This document shows, piece by piece, positions 2,166 through 17,609 of a DNA stretch of 64,000 bases (positions within the stretch are counted from its first letter, which is position 1; each line of letters opens with the position of its first letter). Below the pieces are notes generated by a model that did not search any database, was not told where the DNA came from, and worked only from the letters and a program-made list of their open reading frames with translations. Source of the stretch: Eubacteriales bacterium (lineage in GTDB: Bacteria; Bacillota; Clostridia; Oscillospirales; CAG-272); assembly GCA_045540755.1 (NCBI GenBank), contig JAZQHV010000082.1, positions 24,952-88,951 on the forward strand, given 5' to 3'. The position numbers and the translations under genes were made by a program.

Positions 2166-2322
2166 ATATACGTTTCCATTCCTGTTAAATCTTTGGTTTT
2201 ATTGTATCACAGTTGATTGGCATATACAAGAGTATGTCCTGTTTTGTTATTTTTTTGTCCTGTAGCGTGATTGCCCTGCAGTATACAAGTATGCTATCAT
2301 GAAAGCACAGGAGGCGAAGAAT

Positions 2323-5300
2323 ATGAAACGAAAGATAATTGCGCTTTTGATTGCTTCAATTTTGAGTGTATCCGTCTCTGCTGCAGAGATCACCGTCTGG
2401 AATCGTGAGATCGAGCATCCCGCGACGGAGGCGAATACAGGAAACATGAACAGTATCCCGTATAACAATCCGGATGCTGTCATGGATCTGGAAGCGGGAA
2501 CATGGGTAAAACCCGCCGTAATGGATTATGACGGAGACGGATATTGGGATATCGTTGCCGGCGGTACCGGAATCGGATACAGCGGTACTTACGTGTTTTA
2601 CGGTGATAAGGATTCTGCAGAAACTTTGCTGATGAGCAAGGCGGATAGGGTTGCTGATTCGAAGAGGTACCTGTTTGCTACCTATTTGTATGACAAAATT
2701 GAGAAAGATGGGAAATATACCTATGCATATCAGGACACGGTGTTGTTTTACAACAGCCCCTATGCTTTTTCTGATTTCGAGAATACCCAATATACAAACG
2801 GAGTTCCCCATGGGGCGGATGTGCAATGGCCGTACGCGCAAACCCGTGATAATGCGCGGAGCCTTGTGGATTTTGACGGCGATGGCGTGTACGACCTGAT
2901 CCGTGCAGTAGACAGTTGGACAGAGTACGGCGGTCTTACCGGCAATGCTTACACGGCTGACGGCACTTGGGGAGACGGAGACGATCCGTTGCACGGCTTT
3001 GTGATGTGGGCAAAGAACTATGGCACAAACGAAGCCCCAAGCTATGCAAAAACGGGCACGACGATCTGTGTGAACGGGGACATCGACACCCCAATTGACA
3101 CCTATGGTGGCGCGTATCCGAATTTTTATGATTTTGACGGCGACGGCGACCTTGACCTTATTTGCAGCAATTTTGTTGACGACATTCTCTACTATCAAAA
3201 TGTAGGCAGTGCCACCGCTCCTGTCTATGCAGAGGGCGTTCAGGTGCTGCAGGTAGAGCTATGTATGCCTGCGACAACGGTATTTGACTGGGACGGCGAC
3301 GGTGACTTCGACCTTTTGATCGGCGAGGAGGACGGCAGGATCGGTTATTATGCCAATACGGGTGTGTTTGCCGAAAACGGTGCCCCTGTTTTTGAACCTT
3401 GCCGTTATTTTCAAACGCCTGCCGATACGCTTTCTGTCGGTATGTTGAATACGCCGTTTTCCATTGACTGGGACAGTGACGGTGATGAGGACCTCTTTTC
3501 GGGGGATTCTGCCGGCTTTTTCAACTATGTGCAAAATTTGAGTATAGAAGAAGACCGAAGCTTGACCGATCCTTCTTTTGCACCGCCCGTGCGCCTGACT
3601 GATGAAAATGGCAACGTGATCCGCATTCTTGCAGGACGTGAAGGCTCTGTGCAGGGACCGTCCGAGGAGAAATGGGGTTACACGGTTATTTCCATGGGCG
3701 ACTGGGACGGAGATGGGGATGCGGACATCCTTGCCAATAGCATTTGGGGCAAGATCGTATGGCTGGAAAACCGCGGAAGCGATGCAGCAGACCCCACGCT
3801 GGATTTCTCTGCACCGAAAAGAGTAGAGGTGGACGATCCCACGCCTGAAAAGCCCTTGTGGAACTGGTGGGATCCCGAACCCTATGAGTTGGTTACCCAG
3901 TGGCGCACCACGCCGTACATGATTGATCTGCCGATCAAGGATACGGACGGGGACGGCAAACTTGACGGGGACGGGCTGATGGATATTGTTATGCTGGACA
4001 GCCACGGCTATCTTGCATTTTATGAGCGCTTTGTAGACGAGAATGGCGTGCGGAAGCTGAAAGCACCACAGCACGTCTTCTTAGACGATGGCGGCAAAAG
4101 CCTCTCTATGACCTCCAACACCAAGGGCTCCAGTGGTCGCAGAAAGATTCTTTTGACAGATTGGGACGGAGACGGTGATCTGGACATCATCCAGAACAGC
4201 AGCTATACGGTCCGCTGGTTTGAAAATATCGGCGATGCTGAAACGCCCTATAAGTTTACCGATTTCGTTTGCCTGTATGACGAACGTGATATTGCACAGC
4301 ATTCCACCTGTCCTACAGTATGCGATTGGAATCAGGACGGTGTTCCCGATCTGATCATCGGTGCGGAGGACGGACATTTCTACTATTTCACCAACCGCAC
4401 GGAGCAATACGATCCTTCTGCAAAGAATGACGGCATTGATGCACATCTCGTTGCACATTGGGACTTCATCGGCGAAACCTTGGAGGAAAGGCTGAAAGAC
4501 AAGGCGGCAGACTCGGCATATACGGCAAGCACTACGGCAGACGACCTTACGGTTGTTGGCGGTGTTACCGTAGAGGACGGGATCGCTACCCTGGATGCAA
4601 ATGCAGGAACCTATCTGAATGCGGGAAATCTTGCCGACGTCAATCAGCCGGGGCCGATGACCGTGTTTATGCGTGTCAAACTGGTAGGGGAAACCATTAC
4701 GGATTCCTTTATCGGACTTGCGGACAAACGTGTATTTAAAACGGGTGATGATGCGAAGAACCGCGCCTATGCCTTCGGTATCTGGAAGGACTGGGGCGTT
4801 ACAGGGATCGCCCGCACGACGATACACCGTACGGGAACGCTTTTTCCTGCAAATCTTTGGCGTGAACTTGCCTTCGTCGTGGACAAAAACGCGGACGGAT
4901 ATATTACCATCACGCCGTATCTGTCAAACGGACCGTATACCGATTCTTCTTCGGACTTTGCCGCACTGACCAAAAAGACAACATCGCTTACTGCGTTAAG
5001 CACTGCAAGCATAGGGGATTTGCTGCTCGGCAGAAATCCGGATAAACTTGCGTCCGGTGTTGAGGTCGTTTTTGACGATGTACGCATTTACAATACAGCC
5101 TTGACTGCTGCGGAAATGGCGTCTATTCTGGAGTCGCCGATTTCGCTTGCCCTTGCATCGCTTTCCATAGACGGTGCGAATCTGCTCCCCGTCTTTACTC
5201 CCGAAAAGGCCGCATATACCGCGCGTGTTGCTGCCGGTGTGGAATCGGTTACCGTGCGTGCAAGTGCGGGGCAGGCTGTTATTCTCACGGTAAACGGCAC

Positions 5301-7667: not shown

Positions 7668-9859
7668 CAGCCCTCCGCGTTTTCACACTGACGGATCAGA
7701 TCGTTCTGCTCTGCCTCAGTCAACTCGACGAAGTAGACGTTCCAACCGCAAAGACGAACCTGCAAGGTCTTGTACTTTTCAGGCTCCTTCTGCGCCGCGC
7801 GCAGAACGTTGGGAGAAAGCACGTTCATCTGGATCGCAAAGCCGCCGCGTTGCATGTTGGTCTTGACGAGTGCGCTCATTGCCATGAGACCGCTCTCGCC
7901 CTCTGCGGCAGAACTGTGGAGCATGATATCGAGTACCGTGCCGTCGGGCACCTTGGTGTAATCCACCGATGTTGCCGAGCGGATGAGCGCGGTAACGCCC
8001 TCCTTATCCATGGCGGTGACGGCACACATGTTTTTCGAAAGCATTTCGCCGTGCTTGCGTCCGTCGGGCGAAGCGGTCATGCGTTCGCCAAAGGAAATAC
8101 GGTAGTCGATGGAGAAGAGACCGAGACGGAATACGCCGCCGCGGTGGTTGGGTTTGCCGTTGATCTCCGAAGCAACGTAGTCTACGATGTCCTTGCCGTA
8201 TGCATCGACTTCGGCGATGCCGTTGCCGTATTTCGGGAATGCCTGGCGTACTTCACGCAGAAGCAGTTCGTGACCCTCCCAGTTGTTTTTCAGGATCTCT
8301 GCAAGTTCGGAGAGCGTCATACGCTTCTGATCGTAAACAAGCTTTTTGACCGCAGTGAGCGCGTCTACCGTGCTTGCTACACTGAAGACAACGATCGAGG
8401 AGTTGCTGTAGACTGCGCCGCCGTCGTACACGTCACGGCCACGCTCGATCGCGCTTGCAAAGGTAGAAGAAAGCAACGGTGCCTGGCTGACGTAGGGGCA
8501 ATAGTCCTCTACGGCGCAGATCTTTTCCATGGTGGCGTCGATCAGGCTCTTGATCTGTGCTTTGACGGCAGTATAGAACTCGTCAAAGGTCTTGTAACTG
8601 TCGGGATCGGCGCGTACAGAGCCGATCGGACGATCCAAATAGGGGTCAACGCCCGCATACAGGACGGTGAGCAGTGCCTTGGACATATTGACTCTGCCCG
8701 CGCAGGTCCAGGGCATCTCTTTGCCGAGGGCGCAGGGCTCGTAACAGCCGATGACGGTGTAGTTGCGCGCATCCTCGGGAGAGTCGCCGATACCGATCAG
8801 CGCCTTTTCGATCACGTTGTCGTTGACGAAAACAAAACTGCTGCGACCCATGCGGATCGAGCGGAGCACGAGCTGCAAAAACTCGTCGGGCATTTCGTCA
8901 TACCAACGGATATGGATCTTCGGGTCGTGGATATCCAGTGCCGTGTATTCCTCTACGATCAGATAGGAAAGCTCGTTGATACCCGAGGAGCCGTCCGGCA
9001 GTCTGCCGCCGAGGAAGAACGGGATGTTCGCGGTAATGTGCATCGAGTGGAACTTGTGGAAGTAGTAGCGGAAGAGCTCGCGCGCCTGTTCCTTTGTGAG
9101 TTTGCCGCTCTCGATATCGCGTTTGTAGAAGGGATAGAAGAGTCGGTCGAGACCGCCTACCGAGCGGATCGCCTCGCCCTCTACGTGCGTTTGCAGGTTA
9201 TAGAAGATCATGGAAAGCTGCATGGCCGCCAGCAGGTCGCGCGGAGCGCCCACCGTAAGCGAACGCAGACTGTCGGAGATGAAAAGCATCTTTTCGCCGC
9301 CGAGTTTCGCCGTTGCGTCGGCAAAGCGACCTACAAGGTGGATCGCCGATTCCAGCGTCGTGATTACGCAGTTGTAAAAAAGATCCTGCTCCGCGGTCTT
9401 TTCGCCGTTCTCCTTTGCCGCCTTTGCGCGGGCAAGCAGACCCGGAAGGCCCAAAGTCATAACGGCATCCCAGTCGGGTGAGCAGTGGCCGAGGTCGAGG
9501 CTGCCGGTAAACGCGAGCCCCTCAACTTCTGCGTCGTACTTTTCGATCACGTCGTTTAACGACTTCTTTTCATGACGCAGGCTACGGATCCAGCGGTCAC
9601 GGATCCTCGTGATGATATAGTCGTGACGCAAACGCTCGGGGAAAAAATCCCCCTCACGCACATCAAGTTGTGCCTTGTGCAGTACGGTCTCCAGCATCTT
9701 TGTTTTTGCCAACATGCGGTTGTCGGCATACTCTTTTTCAATAGAAAGGCATTCGTCAAGCAACGCTTCGGGCGTGACACCGCTGGTTTCGTCCCATTTG
9801 CGAACGTCGTACAGCGAAGCGATCTCAGCGCGGTCCTTTTCAAAATTTCCCCAGATCAT
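7667..9859 (-). CDS. glycyl-radical enzyme, dehydratase/PFL2-like fold, substrate unknown
   Basis: Start trimmed to the ATG at 9859 (GGAGG then 8 nt), giving 730 aa. C-terminal glycyl motif LQVRLCGWNVYF. Cys loop VIGCYEPCA. GRE-typical RSVGGLDRLFYPFY and NELSYL segments. Confidence 0.9.
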   Translation of the reverse strand: MIWGNFEKDRAEIASLYDVRKWDETSGVTPEALLDECLSIEKEYADNRMLAKTKMLETVLHKAQLDVREGDFFPERLRHDYIITRIRDRWIRSLRHEKKSLNDVIEKYDAEVEGLAFTGSLDLGHCSPDWDAVMTLGLPGLLARAKAAKENGEKTAEQDLFYNCVITTLESAIHLVGRFADATAKLGGEKMLFISDSLRSLTVGAPRDLLAAMQLSMIFYNLQTHVEGEAIRSVGGLDRLFYPFYKRDIESGKLTKEQARELFRYYFHKFHSMHITANIPFFLGGRLPDGSSGINELSYLIVEEYTALDIHDPKIHIRWYDEMPDEFLQLVLRSIRMGRSSFVFVNDNVIEKALIGIGDSPEDARNYTVIGCYEPCALGKEMPWTCAGRVNMSKALLTVLYAGVDPYLDRPIGSVRADPDSYKTFDEFYTAVKAQIKSLIDATMEKICAVEDYCPYVSQAPLLSSTFASAIERGRDVYDGGAVYSNSSIVVFSVASTVDALTAVKKLVYDQKRMTLSELAEILKNNWEGHELLLREVRQAFPKYGNGIAEVDAYGKDIVDYVASEINGKPNHRGGVFRLGLFSIDYRISFGERMTASPDGRKHGEMLSKNMCAVTAMDKEGVTALIRSATSVDYTKVPDGTVLDIMLHSSAAEGESGLMAMSALVKTNMQRGGFAIQMNVLSPNVLRAAQKEPEKYKTLQVRLCGWNVYFVELTEAEQNDLIRQCENAEG

Positions 9860-12665: not shown

Positions 12666-12694
12666 TTGCATTTTCCGTGTCTCTGTGGTATACT
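12666..12694 (+). promoter_or_regulatory. putative sigma-A promoter of the PPTase gene
   Basis: TTGCAT (12666-12671), 17 nt, TGgTATACT (-10 at 12689-12694). Confidence 0.5.
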
Positions 12695-12716
12695 GATACC
12701 AAAGGAGGTGACCGCT

Positions 12717-13355
12717 GTGACGGAGGTATATATTGCGCGTGTGGATGCACTGTGTGACGATGCGGTTTTCACCGCGCGGTATGCACAAGCACCGGCAGAG
12801 CGCAGAGCAAAGATCGATGCCTTGCGGCATGCGGCGGACAAGCGTCTCTCCCTTGGCGTATGGCTTTTGCTGGCGGCGGCGCTCCGTAAGCGCGGTATCA
12901 CCGTGCCGCACCTTGCTTATGACGAAAACGGCAAGCCATACCTCGCCGACTGCCCCTCATTGCACGTCAGCCTTTCCCATTCGGGCGAGGCGGTGATGTG
13001 CGCCGTCTCGGACGGTGAAGTCGGCTGTGACATCGAGCGCCTCGGCGATGCGGATATTTCTCTTGCGGCACGTTGGTTTCACCCCGCAGAGCAGGCAAGG
13101 CTTTTTTTCGCACCGACGGAGGAGCGTCGAGCTCTCTTTTACCGTATTTGGACGGCGAAAGAGAGCTTTGCCAAATGCACGGGGCGGGGGATCGCGCACG
13201 GAATGCGCGACTTTTTCTTGGAGCCTGCGGGCACCGTCCACTGCGGCGAAAAGCAGTATCATATAAAATATGTAGATTTTGATGGCTATGCTGCCTGTGT
13301 CTGCACGGAGGCACAAGAGGATATTGACGCGACTCGGGATATTGTGTTATACTAA
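12717..13355 (+). CDS. Sfp-type 4'-phosphopantetheinyl transferase
   Basis: GTG at 12717, 8 nt after AAAGGAGG. Motifs GKPYL, SLSHSGEAVMCAVS, VGCDIE, WTAKESFAKCTGRG. Confidence 0.75.
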   Translation: MTEVYIARVDALCDDAVFTARYAQAPAERRAKIDALRHAADKRLSLGVWLLLAAALRKRGITVPHLAYDENGKPYLADCPSLHVSLSHSGEAVMCAVSDGEVGCDIERLGDADISLAARWFHPAEQARLFFAPTEERRALFYRIWTAKESFAKCTGRGIAHGMRDFFLEPAGTVHCGEKQYHIKYVDFDGYAACVCTEAQEDIDATRDIVLY

Positions 13356-15571: not shown

Positions 15572-15780
15572 GTAATCCTTTCTCCTGTAACATTTTAGCG
15601 CAAGATGAAAAGGAATTGGCGGTTTTACCGTCGTTCCTTTCGGTTGTCGGTTGCGTCTCTGCTTTTATAGAAGATTATATACAGGCATCAACTGGAATGT
15701 CAAGTCCATAAATAAATAAAGCTTTTAAGCATATGCAGTCCGATTTAGACTGTCTGTTTTTTTGTAGGCCTTCTAAGCAA

Positions 15781-15820
15781 AGCAAAAGAAGCGTAACTTT
15801 GTATCAAAATTACGCTTCTT
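15781..15820 (-). terminator. stem-loop with short U-tract after tRNA-like unit 1
   Basis: 10-bp stem (15787-15796 / 15810-15819) with a 13-nt loop, followed on the minus strand by TTTTGC. Confidence 0.45.
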
Positions 15821-15823
15821 TTC

Positions 15824-15924
15824 TGGCGCAGGGAGTGGGATTCGAGACCCACAAAGCGTCGCAAGCGACGCTTGATCCCTCGCTGTCGCGATGGAGGTGT
15901 GTTCAAATCAACCACCCCCACGCC
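15824..15924 (-). other. tRNA-Ser 3'-end-bearing unit 1 (no cloverleaf)
   Basis: Ends (minus strand) in GTGGGTCTCGAATCCCACTCCCTGCGCCA, matching the tRNA-Ser T-arm, acceptor 3' strand and CCA. There is no GCAGGGA 5' partner. Instead, 5' GGCGUGGGGG can pair with UCCCUGCGCC using 3 G-U pairs that are valid only on the minus strand. Confidence 0.5.
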
Positions 15925-15926
15925 GA

Positions 15927-15956
15927 GAAAAAGAAAAAGGCACCCCAACGGGCGCC
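15927..15956 (-). terminator. intrinsic terminator after unit 2
   Basis: Minus strand reads GGCGCCC-GUUG-GGGUGCC followed by UUUUUCUUUUU. Confidence 0.65.
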
Positions 15957-15966
15957 ATTTTCCTTT

Positions 15967-16063
15967 TGGCGCAGGGAGTGGGATTCGCCCGCCTGCGGGC
16001 GGAGCGGTGGTCGGCTCTGACTGCCACCGGCAGTCATTCACTACCGACCCTTCGAATCCCACC
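15967..16063 (-). other. tRNA-Ser 3'-end-bearing unit 2 (no cloverleaf)
   Basis: Ends in GCGGGCGAATCCCACTCCCTGCGCCA. A 10-bp perfect inverted repeat gtgggattcg (15978-15987) / cgaatcccac (16053-16062) encloses two internal hairpins. Confidence 0.5.
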
Positions 16064-16073
16064 TTTTACTATC

Positions 16074-16105
16074 AAACAAAAAACAGATGGGCTACAGCCC
16101 ATCTG
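16074..16105 (-). terminator. intrinsic terminator of tRNA-Ser
   Basis: 9-bp stem (16084-16092 / 16097-16105) followed on the minus strand by TTTTTTGTTT. Confidence 0.75.
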
Positions 16106-16113
16106 CTTTTCGT

Positions 16114-16200
16114 TGGCGCAGGGAGTGGGATTCGAACCCACGCGGGTTGCCCCAAACGGTTTTCAAGACCGCCGCGTTATGACCACTTCGCTATCCCTGC
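16114..16200 (-). tRNA. tRNA-Ser (anticodon UGA), CCA encoded
   Basis: Manual cloverleaf. Acceptor GCAGGGA/UCCCUGC. 3-bp D stem GCG..CGC. Anticodon arm GCGGU-CUUGAAA-ACCGU. Long variable arm. T arm GUGGG-UUCGAAU-CCCAC. Discriminator G plus CCA. 87 nt. Confidence 0.9.
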
Positions 16201-16217
16201 ATATTTGCAACATGGAT

Positions 16218-16245
16218 ATTGTACCACAAATTGCAGAAAAGTCAA
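16218..16245 (-). promoter_or_regulatory. putative sigma-A promoter of tRNA-Ser
   Basis: Minus strand reads TTGACT, 16 nt, TGgTACAAT, ending about 17 nt before the tRNA 5' end. Confidence 0.55.
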
Positions 16246-16277: not shown

Positions 16278-16306
16278 TTGACACGGGTGCAGTTTTTTTG
16301 TACAAT
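16278..16306 (+). promoter_or_regulatory. putative sigma-A promoter of the SPFH operon
   Basis: TTGACA (16278-16283), 17 nt, TACAAT (16301-16306). Confidence 0.6.
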
Positions 16307-16343: not shown

Positions 16344-17609
16344 ATGGGACTTATTAAGGCGGCAATCGGCGCTATCGGCGGCGCACTCGGCGATCAGTGG
16401 CTGGAAGCGATCGAAGCGGACAACATGAGCGACTCCACCGTGTTTACGCGCGGCAGACTCGTGAACAGCTCCGACCGTTCCTCCAACAAAAAGGGCACCG
16501 AAAACGTCATCAGCGACGGCTCTGTGATCCACGTGTACCCCGGTCAGTTCATGATGCTGGTCGAGGGCGGCAAGATCATCGACTACACTGCGGAGGAGGG
16601 CTACTACAAGGTAGACAACAAGTGCGCCCCCTCGCTCTTCAACGGTCAGTTCGGTGCGGCGCTCAAGGACGTTTGGGAGCGCTTTAAGTTCGGCGGCACG
16701 CCCTCCTATGCGCAGAAGGCGTACTTCATCAATCTGCAGGAGATCAAGGGAATCAAATTCGGCACGCCCACCGCGCTCAACTATTTTGACAACTTCTACA
16801 ATGCCGAGCTGTTCTTGCGCGCACACGGCACGTATTCCATCAAGGTAACCAATCCGATCCTGTTCTATACCGAGGCAATCCCGAAGAACGAGGATCATGT
16901 TGACATCACCGATATCAACGAGCAGTATCTTTCCGAGTTCCTCTCCGCATTGCAGGCGGCGATCAACAAGATGTCGGTAGACAACATTCGCATCTCGCAC
17001 GTTGCCTCGAAGTCGGTCGAGCTGTCGAAGTACATGGCAGATGAACTGGACGCTGACTGGAAGCAGATGCGCGGCTTTGAGGTGCAGGCGGTCGGTATTG
17101 CAAGCATCTCCTACGACGAGGAGTCGAAGAAGCTTATTGAAATGCGCAATCAGGGCGCAATGCTTTCCGATCCCACCGTGCGCGAAGGCTACGTGCAAGG
17201 CTCGATCGCACGCGGCTTTGAGGCTGCCGGATCCAATACGGGCGGCAGCGCGCAGGCGTTTATGGGCATGGGAATGGGCATGGGTGCCGCAGGCAACTTT
17301 ATGGGCTCCATGAGCGAGACCAACCGCGCCCAGATGCAGCAGCAGGCTGCGCAGGCGCAGGCGGCTCCCGCAGCCAACACCTGGAAGTGCGTATGCGGCC
17401 GCGAATGCACGGGCAACTTCTGCCCGCAGTGCGGCGCAAAGAAGCCCGCAGCGTCCGCTGCATGGACATGCGCGTGCGGAAGCGAGTGCACGGGTAATTT
17501 CTGCCCGCAGTGCGGTGCAAAAAAGCCGCAGGGCTGGGTATGCCCCGATTGCGGCACCAAGAATGAGGGAAAGTTCTGCCAGAACTGCGGACGGAAAAAC
17601 GAGGCGTAA
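16344..17609 (+). CDS. SPFH/YdjI-like protein with three C-terminal zinc ribbons
   Basis: Start trimmed to the ATG at 16344, because the track ORF begins inside the tRNA region. N-terminus MGLIKAAIGAIGGALGDQWLE. C-terminus has 3x CxCG..FCPQCG / CPDCG..FCQNCG. Confidence 0.8.
   Translation: MGLIKAAIGAIGGALGDQWLEAIEADNMSDSTVFTRGRLVNSSDRSSNKKGTENVISDGSVIHVYPGQFMMLVEGGKIIDYTAEEGYYKVDNKCAPSLFNGQFGAALKDVWERFKFGGTPSYAQKAYFINLQEIKGIKFGTPTALNYFDNFYNAELFLRAHGTYSIKVTNPILFYTEAIPKNEDHVDITDINEQYLSEFLSALQAAINKMSVDNIRISHVASKSVELSKYMADELDADWKQMRGFEVQAVGIASISYDEESKKLIEMRNQGAMLSDPTVREGYVQGSIARGFEAAGSNTGGSAQAFMGMGMGMGAAGNFMGSMSETNRAQMQQQAAQAQAAPAANTWKCVCGRECTGNFCPQCGAKKPAASAAWTCACGSECTGNFCPQCGAKKPQGWVCPDCGTKNEGKFCQNCGRKNEA

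Follow-up and report, generated by a model that had tools for sequence, protein, structure and literature searches.

Integrases that target the 3′ ends of tRNA genes reportedly leave attL/attR direct repeats of the tRNA end, with the T-loop as one sublocation of the crossover (Reiter 1989; Williams 2002). Repeats of tRNA 3′ ends are usually taken as scars of phages or islands and then ignored. We analysed such a case in a 64,000-nucleotide stretch of DNA from an uncultured gut member of the Clostridia (Eubacteriales bacterium, contig JAZQHV010000082.1; the window, meaning this whole 64-kb stretch), in which a tRNA-Ser(UGA) gene is followed by two units that each end in a copy of the tRNA 3′ end. 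Here the intervening DNA is conserved, covarying and structured. One unit belongs to a family that looks like an anticodon-less tRNA derivative maintained beside its parent gene across genera, the other to a family with an invariant motif that recurs in gut and rumen phage genomes; neither family is in Rfam, and annotation pipelines currently overlook both. A sequence-only reading by a model had offered three explanations: stacked att scars of deleted integrative elements, decayed tandem tRNA copies, or expressed tRNA-like small RNAs with a CCA end. The last of these fits the structural evidence best. Tentatively, and at somewhat less than an even chance, we favour the reading that the units are structured RNAs transcribed by read-through, with a tRNA-like 3′ helix, and not recombination debris.

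Organization of the tRNA-Ser locus

The locus lies on the minus strand. Its features, read from the tRNA promoter onwards, are as follows.

16218–16245, minus strand: tRNA-Ser promoter, sigma-70-type, TTGACT-16-TACAAT with TG
16114–16200, minus strand: tRNA-Ser(UGA), class II, CCA encoded (ARAGORN, RF00005); core copy 1 is its last 21 nt, 16114–16134
16078–16111, minus strand: terminator T1, symmetric hairpin GCAGATGGGC-TGTA-GCCCATCTG, then U-tract
15967–16065, minus strand: unit 2 (type A), from a match to covariance model (CM) R1, alignments and fold z = −4.3
15930–15965, minus strand: terminator T2, GGCGCCC-GTTG-GGGTGCC, then TTTTTCTTTTT; hairpin and U-tract at 15956–15939
15824–15925, minus strand: unit 1 (type B), from CM R2 (115 bits), pair counts, RNAalifold consensus and fold z = −5.2
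15784–15822, minus strand: terminator T3, 18-bp hairpin, orthologous in related loci L018 and L154
15674–15703, minus strand: promoter of the downstream PHP-domain gene, the end marker of the tRNA locus, outside the units

The 21-mer TGGCGCAGGGAGTGGGATTCG (plus strand; CGAATCCCACTCCCTGCGCCA on the minus strand), which we call the core, is present in exactly three copies, at 15824, 15967 and 16114, spaced by 143 and 147 bp, as the sequence-only reading had seen. No match appeared in 100 dinucleotide-preserving shuffles with up to 3 mismatches permitted. The core spans C56 of the T-loop to CCA, and 122–126 nt separate neighbouring copies. The copy at 16114 is the only one within a complete cloverleaf, again in agreement with that reading: ARAGORN found a single tRNA in the whole window, the tRNA-Ser(UGA) at 16114–16200 (minus strand), which Rfam model RF00005 scored at 61.9 bits (gathering threshold 29 bits; tRNA membership was taken as a cloverleaf with a 7-nt anticodon loop). 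Units 1 and 2 gave no tRNA match with ARAGORN, nor with Rfam even at E≤10.

All three core copies have a sense-strand intrinsic terminator directly 3′ of them, a GC-rich hairpin with a U-tract (T1, T2 and T3), so the stem-loops noted earlier are borne out. T1 was scored on the plus strand (16084–16105), yet it is a symmetric hairpin with UUUUUUGU after it on the minus strand. T2 is homologous to the terminator that stands directly 3′ of the tRNA in relatives without unit 2. Promoter scoring of the minus strand of the locus likewise upheld the claim that a consensus promoter precedes the true tRNA only: the promoter-like sites are at 16245–16218, before the tRNA, and at 15703–15674, before the next gene, and none lies directly before unit 1 or unit 2.

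Structure and conservation of unit 1

Both units fold far more stably than their shuffles (z = −5.2 for unit 1 and −4.3 for unit 2). Unit 1 opens with a 5′ strand that complements the acceptor and T-arm. Hairpins H2 and H3 follow, then a T-arm whose loop has 8 nt, and lastly the 3′ strand of the acceptor with GCCA; core copy 3 (15824–15844) forms the 3′ end of the unit. The predicted pairing of its 5′ end GGCGUGGGGG with UCCCUGCGCC, three pairs of which are G-U, was recovered by folding. H2 and H3 occupy the positions of the anticodon arm and the variable arm, and the D-arm is absent. Loops at the anticodon-arm position are only 3–4 nt long in type B (GACA, AUCA, GUUA, GGCA or GUA), and type B therefore cannot decode. 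We considered unit 1 as an unusual decoding tRNA of the allo-tRNA or tRNA-Sec type; the short, variable loop at the anticodon position rules this out.

Type-B homologues are found in at least seven related lineages (L066, L011, L018, L154/155, L078, L158–160, L009 and L010), all at the tRNA-Ser/SPFH locus. CM R2, which scores unit 1 at 115 bits, matches type B solely at such loci and finds none in phage loci; a scan of 2.9 million viral contigs with the type-B H2 motif returned only chance matches in coding DNA. Unit 1 and its terminators are about 76% identical between the window and L018, L011 and L154, with the adjoining SPFH coding DNA at about 75%; the DNA past T3 is unrelated between the window and these three loci.

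The stems of type B are kept by compensatory change. In a nine-sequence alignment every cell of H2 (100%) is paired and 3 of its pairs are compensatory, as are 3 in H3; the T-arm is 93% paired and has 2 such pairs. The covariation score was matched by 0 of 500 shuffles, sliding the partners lowers pairing from about 80% to about 45%, and an independent RNAalifold run returned a partial acceptor, H2, H3 and the T-arm. Moreover, pair cells on the tRNA-sense strand comprise 28 G-U/U-G against 5 A-C/C-A. This excess points to constraint on one strand and not to symmetric DNA processes. From these comparisons we conclude that type B is a tRNA-like element that derives from tRNA-Ser, is inherited vertically and has its structure preserved on the sense strand.

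The last ~28 nt of the tRNA recur, inverted and diverged, as the 5′ region of type B. This region can either pair like an acceptor strand or form one side of a long hairpin; the long hairpin is the minimum free energy structure for the units of the window, L066, L078 and L158. The 5′ strand covaries with the core, GGCGUGGGGG standing opposite UCCCUGCGCC in the window and GGAGAUGGGAGG opposite CCUUCCUCUCC in L078. A TCGC...GCGA core is common to H2 and H3 in several lineages. CM R2 scores true tRNA-Ser genes at 20–25 bits, which may reflect mostly the common T-arm and acceptor, so that overall homology is weakly supported. The suggestion that the units are decayed tandem tRNA copies thus appears partly right as to origin, type B plausibly descending from a tRNA-Ser copy. 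It does not hold as to decay: covariance models give unit 1 no tRNA score and do not class it as a tRNA pseudogene, and its stems are compensatory. Together, the covariance-model tests and the maintained stems exclude the ordinary-pseudogene reading.

Unit 2 and its phage-borne relatives

In unit 2, the 5′ arm GGTGGGATTCG (16063–16053) pairs with core copy 2 (15987–15967) to form helix P1. Inside P1 lie P2, an internal loop made of GGTAGTGAATG (16045–16035) and CAGAGCC (16019–16013) with P3 between them, and P4 (16002–15989). The 10-bp perfect helix GUGGGAUUCG/CGAAUCCCAC enclosing two hairpins, as read from the letters alone, is reproduced by folding. CM R1 matches 15987–16065 at 67 bits. The arrangement GGUAGUGAAUG-hairpin-CAGAGCC is common to the window and L007, with compensatory stems. 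The whole segment tRNA-T1-unit 2-T2 is homologous between the two and has diverged as much as the flanking genes, which points to vertical descent. Over the 64-kb window and ~0.5 Mb of related loci, CM R1 finds type A only in the window (one copy) and in L007. Type A as a high-copy repeat of the source genome is ruled out by the lack of a second copy in the window.

Scanning viral contigs (IMG/VR) with the type-A motif gave 32 loci. The loose pattern was expected to yield tens of chance matches, and about 12 of the 32 are such; true members were recognized by conservation of the hairpin, P2, P4 and flanks, leaving about 20 true copies in 17 contigs. These conserve P2, P3 and P4 and carry a GCGAAGC element upstream. 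Among 20 type-A sequences, 10 of 17 P2/P3 pairs are compensatory and the asymmetric internal loop is identical in all. Type-A stems are nearly all Watson–Crick, and the G-U versus A-C strand test is uninformative for them. The loop fits the pattern GGU-AGU-GA...GA-GCC with an invariant U-G closing pair, but has one extra A before the NC-stem. A K-turn consists of a C-stem, a 3-nt bulge, tandem sheared G.A/A.G pairs and an NC-stem; by comparison with that scheme we infer a K-turn-like element here, in which the stem closed by U-G would be followed by AGU as the bulge and by tandem G.A pairs.

Generic type-A copies are multi-copy, intergenic, hairpin-rich and mostly downstream of genes, with a GTAG head ahead of the hairpin. 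They sit in phage structural modules beside capsid, YopX and DUF859 genes, and 11 of 15 have the same orientation as the gene upstream of them. Loci L034–L065 (IMG/VR) carry the type-A core in intergenic spacers, with up to 3 copies per phage contig, for example L039:4406–4530, 9044–9168 and 12666–12790; L039 is also rich in other GC-rich repeats, such as GACTGAGGGGTCGCC...GGGAAAAGA. Two viral loci resemble the window more closely. L048 has, in order, an integrase C-terminus, a tRNA 3′ fragment, a terminator, a type A ending in a second copy of the tRNA end, and a terminator; L035 has two tandem modules of terminator, type A and core. In both, the type-A core is joined to other tRNA 3′ ends and its 5′ arm complements the local tRNA end.

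With the Rfam 15 covariance models, types A and B and the 5′ unit described below all stayed within noise, a generic type-A copy had no BLAST match among cultured phages and plasmids, and full-text literature searches on the motif and related concepts returned nothing relevant. A conserved protein partner of type A was sought by clustering the open reading frames within 3 kb and rejected, no family being common to unrelated contigs.

The folds of both units could also have arisen without function. An inverted-plus-direct duplication of the tRNA end could result from a template switch at the T-arm or the palindromic terminator, as in tandem-inversion duplication, with hairpins kept by quasi-palindrome correction and copies homogenized by gene conversion. 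The order of parts fits this origin (tRNA end, palindromic terminator, inverted copy, direct copy, terminator), as do the mirror image seen at the 5′ end of the tRNA in L154, L186 and L187 (a direct and then an inverted copy ahead of the real tRNA), the TCGC...GCGA core common to H2 and H3 in several lineages, the lack of promoters before the units, and the fact that units are dispensable and vary in copy number. It leaves unexplained, however, why the type-A internal loop is invariant in 20 copies from very different contexts, why G-U exceeds A-C by 28 to 5 on one strand, and why conservation equals that of coding DNA across genus-level divergence. We regard functionless duplication as unlikely.

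Related loci and exchange between cores

Related loci were collected with a 21-mer scan of one genome per species, which gave at least 33 loci, many of them from metagenome-assembled genomes (MAGs) of gut or rumen Clostridia or Oscillospiraceae. A metagenome scan with the SPFH protein, and contigs that encode homologues of it, added further orthologous loci. In the window the tRNA is neighboured by a divergent SPFH-domain gene (16344–17609, plus strand) and a PHP-domain gene (15571–14894, minus strand); the flanking genes of the array are SPFH, PHP and HerA-like. The SPFH gene and the tRNA have back-to-back near-consensus promoters (16278–16306, plus strand, and 16218–16245, minus strand) in a divergent region of ~140 bp that is kept in relatives. 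Synteny holds on the SPFH side. On the other side, past the tRNA, nearly every genome is different, and the idea of synteny across the PHP gene was dropped for this lack of conservation. Several related loci have one or two units behind the tRNA, from two unrelated families.

The closest comparison is L066, from a strain 98.4% identical to the window over 4 kb. Its order is tRNA-core-T2-unit 1-core-T3, and it is without exactly T1, unit 2 and one core. Both of its cores read ACTCTCC in place of the window's TCCCTGC (three substitutions), with the unit's 5′ strand and body unchanged; in L018 the ACTCTCC version is present in the unit only. Near-identical modules stand in tandem in L010, L035 and L158. 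The core changes and module loss in L066, together with the tandem modules, therefore indicate that the direct repeats recombine by deletion, duplication and conversion. As these alleles show, recombination or gene conversion between the repeated copies holds the 21-nt core identical to the tRNA, and core recombination also deletes or duplicates whole modules.

The tRNA allele itself is apparently exchanged between lineages. L158 has a unit almost identical to that of L078 behind a different tRNA-Ser allele, and L073 has the L158-type allele and its terminator with no unit. Comparison of acceptor stems (L066:1–70 against window 16113–16180, and L073, L075, L078 and L158) gave four versions for the tRNA-Ser(UGA) of the orthologous locus: GCAGGGA/TCCCTGC, GGAGAGG/CCTCTCC, GGAGGGT/ACCCTCC and a fourth with ACTCTCC as its 3′ strand. 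That acceptor stems differ even between 98%-identical strains suggests frequent allele replacement at a hotspot.

Other arrangements were seen around tRNA-Ser. A mirror-image 5′ unit (L154:2757–2880, minus strand; L186; L187–189) is a 90–115-nt insert between the tRNA-Ser promoter and the tRNA. It begins with a direct copy of 10–24 nt of the tRNA 5′ end (leader included in L187), has at its other end the inverted complement of the first ~20 nt of the tRNA, and folds into a closing helix with two covarying hairpins (z = −4 to −5.8). This 5′ unit is absent from the window and from Rfam, and its motif gave only chance matches in coding DNA in the viral contigs. More diverged or truncated units lie behind tRNA-Ser in L004 (2175–2308), L005 (downstream of the core), L006 (4040–4149) and L014 (near 380–400); they begin with ATTCGAACCC, an inverted T-arm, or end with the T-arm-like GGGGGTTCTGAATCCCAC, and unit families beyond types A and B may thus exist. 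The tRNA-Ser(UGA) of Bathyarchaeia MAGs (L001, L003, L013, L016, L021, L025, L026, L028 and L030) has an identical 3′ 21-mer and very similar acceptor stems, with no units downstream.

The core as an integration site

The core is used by genuine elements in relatives. L031 and L032, from one MAG, look like attL and attR of an element; the P arm of L032 is AT-rich with arm-type repeats, unlike the units. The same foreign DNA (ATGAAACGGAGTTAACTTTCGAACATTTTTATTGG...) adjoins the core in L153:1–140, which is from the window's species, and in L187–189, from a species whose SPFH protein is 80% identical; an rve-family transposase follows the foreign DNA in L187 and L189. This DNA is probably an element specific for the core. 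L005 has an anticodon-loop crossover. In L009 the C-terminal half of a large serine recombinase (2211–3012, plus strand; Recombinase and Zn_ribbon_recom) starts exactly at the 3′ edge of the distal core, and its reading frame runs through the core; the N-terminal half is not within the 3.5 kb of L009 that were analysed. In L048 an integrase gene adjoins a core.

The window itself has no integrase or element-derived DNA between or next to the core repeats, as the sequence-only reading had remarked of integrases. An exact search for the 21-mer in IMG/VR returned 0 matches, and there is therefore no known viral attP with this 21-nt core; a tandem-core pattern had 0 matches in JGI metagenomes. When the entire locus was compared by BLAST with cultured phages and plasmids, the tRNA was the one part with a match, and the unit bodies had none. 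The units are not scars of the elements that integrate at the core. Of the proposal of stacked scars, the premise stands, in that the core is a genuine integration site (L031/L032, L153/L187, L048 and L009) and modules are gained and lost precisely there (L066). The scar reading does not: the intervening DNA consists of two conserved structured families, and conservation, covariation and the invariant motif leave inert att scars not supported as stated.

Could the units instead be miniature integrative modules? Each set of terminator, body and core would then represent a minimal element of attP type, or what is left where the two ends of a deleted one were joined, inserted and excised at the tRNA 3′ end by a tyrosine integrase acting in trans, with the bodies as recombination arms. 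The exact direct repeat from T-loop through CCA, the proven use of the core by an integrase-bearing L048 and the other loci above, and the new terminator that every module brings to the tRNA, as real elements do, all agree with this. So does the presence/absence difference in the close strain L066, bounded precisely by cores; homologous deletion between the 21-bp repeats alone explains that deletion, however. Moreover, only 122–126 bp lie between cores, with no integrase in or near the array. Type B has never been found off the orthologous locus or in 2.9 million viral contigs, and tRNA-T1-unit 2-T2 has diverged equally with the flanking genes between the window and L007. The P arm of a genuine element (L032) is nothing like the units, and in L158 the unit core mismatches the resident tRNA, and because of this difference L158 is without a flanking direct repeat. 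Mobile modules therefore seem to us a doubtful explanation.

Discussion

We return to the units as structured RNAs made by read-through. Both would be transcribed from the tRNA promoter, through read-through of the preceding terminator, and each RNA would end in GCCA, its ends joined in a long helix that imitates the acceptor/T-stem stack; its own terminator would close it off. With such a helix, GCCA end and terminator, the RNAs would therefore be matured and stabilized like tRNA top-halves. Unit 1 presents an acceptor-like helix, a T-arm and two hairpins, a 3–4-nt loop replacing the anticodon loop. Unit 2 has a widespread three-way-junction motif set inside a helix of the tRNA 3′ end and its complement.

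Several observations weigh against this model. A good intrinsic terminator and no promoter precede each unit, so that little unit RNA would be expected without leaky termination. The units are dispensable: some seven orthologous loci have none or a remnant (for example L008, L014, L073, L075 and L186). The acceptor-like helix has just 5 of 7 pairs in L018, L154 and L066, and L009 and L010 have a 17-nt insertion in the T-loop, both of which make a poor fit to a molecule read by tRNA enzymes. The block of identity from T-loop to CCA is the classical crossover footprint of tyrosine integrases. Many hairpin loops are C-GNA-G triloops and GCGAAGC is also present; both are typical of stable DNA hairpins. 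Finally, compensatory change in short palindromes is possible without selection, through template-switch correction of quasi-palindromes.

Such DNA-type loops invite a reading in which the acting molecule is DNA. The units would be recombination sites of folded single-stranded DNA, like integron attC or the attP(+) hairpin of CTX phage, in which the stem rebuilds the duplex of the tRNA 3′ end (attB), and the array an integron-like row of cassettes anchored on the tRNA. Each unit is indeed an imperfect inverted repeat whose stem copies the attB duplex, with conserved bulges. There is one core per module boundary, the tRNA included, GNA triloops and GCGAAGC mini-hairpins are of the DNA type, and folding is strand-specific. 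Nevertheless, an integron-type integrase is absent from the window and the orthologous loci, the cassettes hold only a terminator, type B is inherited vertically, and the orthologue consensus prefers the local T-arm over the long hairpin. GC skew, too, indicates that the folding (sense) strand is not the lagging-strand template. We consider this reading very improbable.

A bolder form of the RNA model, which we think unlikely to hold in full, is that the units belong to a new class of 'tRNA-end hairpin' RNAs flanking the tRNA-Ser of uncultured Oscillospirales-type Clostridia and some phage-targeted tRNAs. These would be Y-shaped, their closing helix formed by a copy of a tRNA terminus and its complement. 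RNase P and the CCA machinery would process types A and B, which end in GCCA, into mimics of a tRNA top half without anticodon. They might serve as a non-decoding seryl acceptor or as a decoy for readers of the acceptor/T-arm (integrases, tRNA-targeting toxins or phage factors), and the type-A core would be a new K-turn-like protein-binding motif common with phages. If transcribed, the units would be tRNA-like RNAs of a new kind, or regulatory or decoy elements of a new type linked to a tRNA, and concerted evolution of a tRNA with its mimic could be studied in them. If they act as DNA, they would correspond to attC hairpins anchored on a tRNA.

Comparison with known systems

Like attL/attR repeats, the units repeat the exact tRNA segment from T-loop to CCA, share their core with real elements in relatives, and are gained or lost precisely at the repeat (L066), an event that homologous deletion explains equally well. 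Unlike them, the unit repeats are only 143–147 bp apart, with no integrase and no element DNA, and the unit bodies form conserved structured families that appear to be vertically inherited.

Unit 1 resembles tRNA pseudogenes and tandem duplicates in keeping an encoded CCA, a T-arm, an acceptor-like helix and, where the variable arm would be, a long hairpin, and tandem tRNA gene copies in having its own terminator. It differs from pseudogenes in being without anticodon loop and D-arm, in finding no match with ARAGORN or with RF00005 at E≤10, and in stems that are kept by compensatory change and are not decaying.

With the tRNA-like domain of tmRNA, YrlA/Y RNAs and acceptor-T-arm minihelices, the units share a predicted terminal helix equivalent to an acceptor/T-stem stack ending in NCCA, in which a non-tRNA insert stands in for the rest of the molecule. 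Unlike tmRNA and YrlA they have no Rfam match, and a partner gene such as rsr or smpB was not seen. Integron attC sites and the forked attP(+) hairpin of CTX phage are likewise ~100-nt imperfect inverted repeats whose stem mimics the target duplex, and the array has one core per module boundary as theirs do; here, in contrast, there is no integron integrase or gene cassette, and the evidence leans to RNA or vertical inheritance.

Finally, generic type-A copies recall REP, REPIN and MITE elements in being multi-copy, intergenic and hairpin-rich, with a GTAG head before the hairpin. Type A is unlike these in being single-copy in the window, with none further in ~0.5 Mb of related loci besides L007 and several per contig only in phage contigs; in its invariant asymmetric internal loop; and in having no link to RAYT or transposase that we found.

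The units thus fail at least one defining test each of an att duplication, a tRNA pseudogene, a tmRNA/YrlA mimic and an attC site. Set beside all four, they are best rated as putative tRNA-derived, tRNA-like elements, acting as RNA or as DNA.

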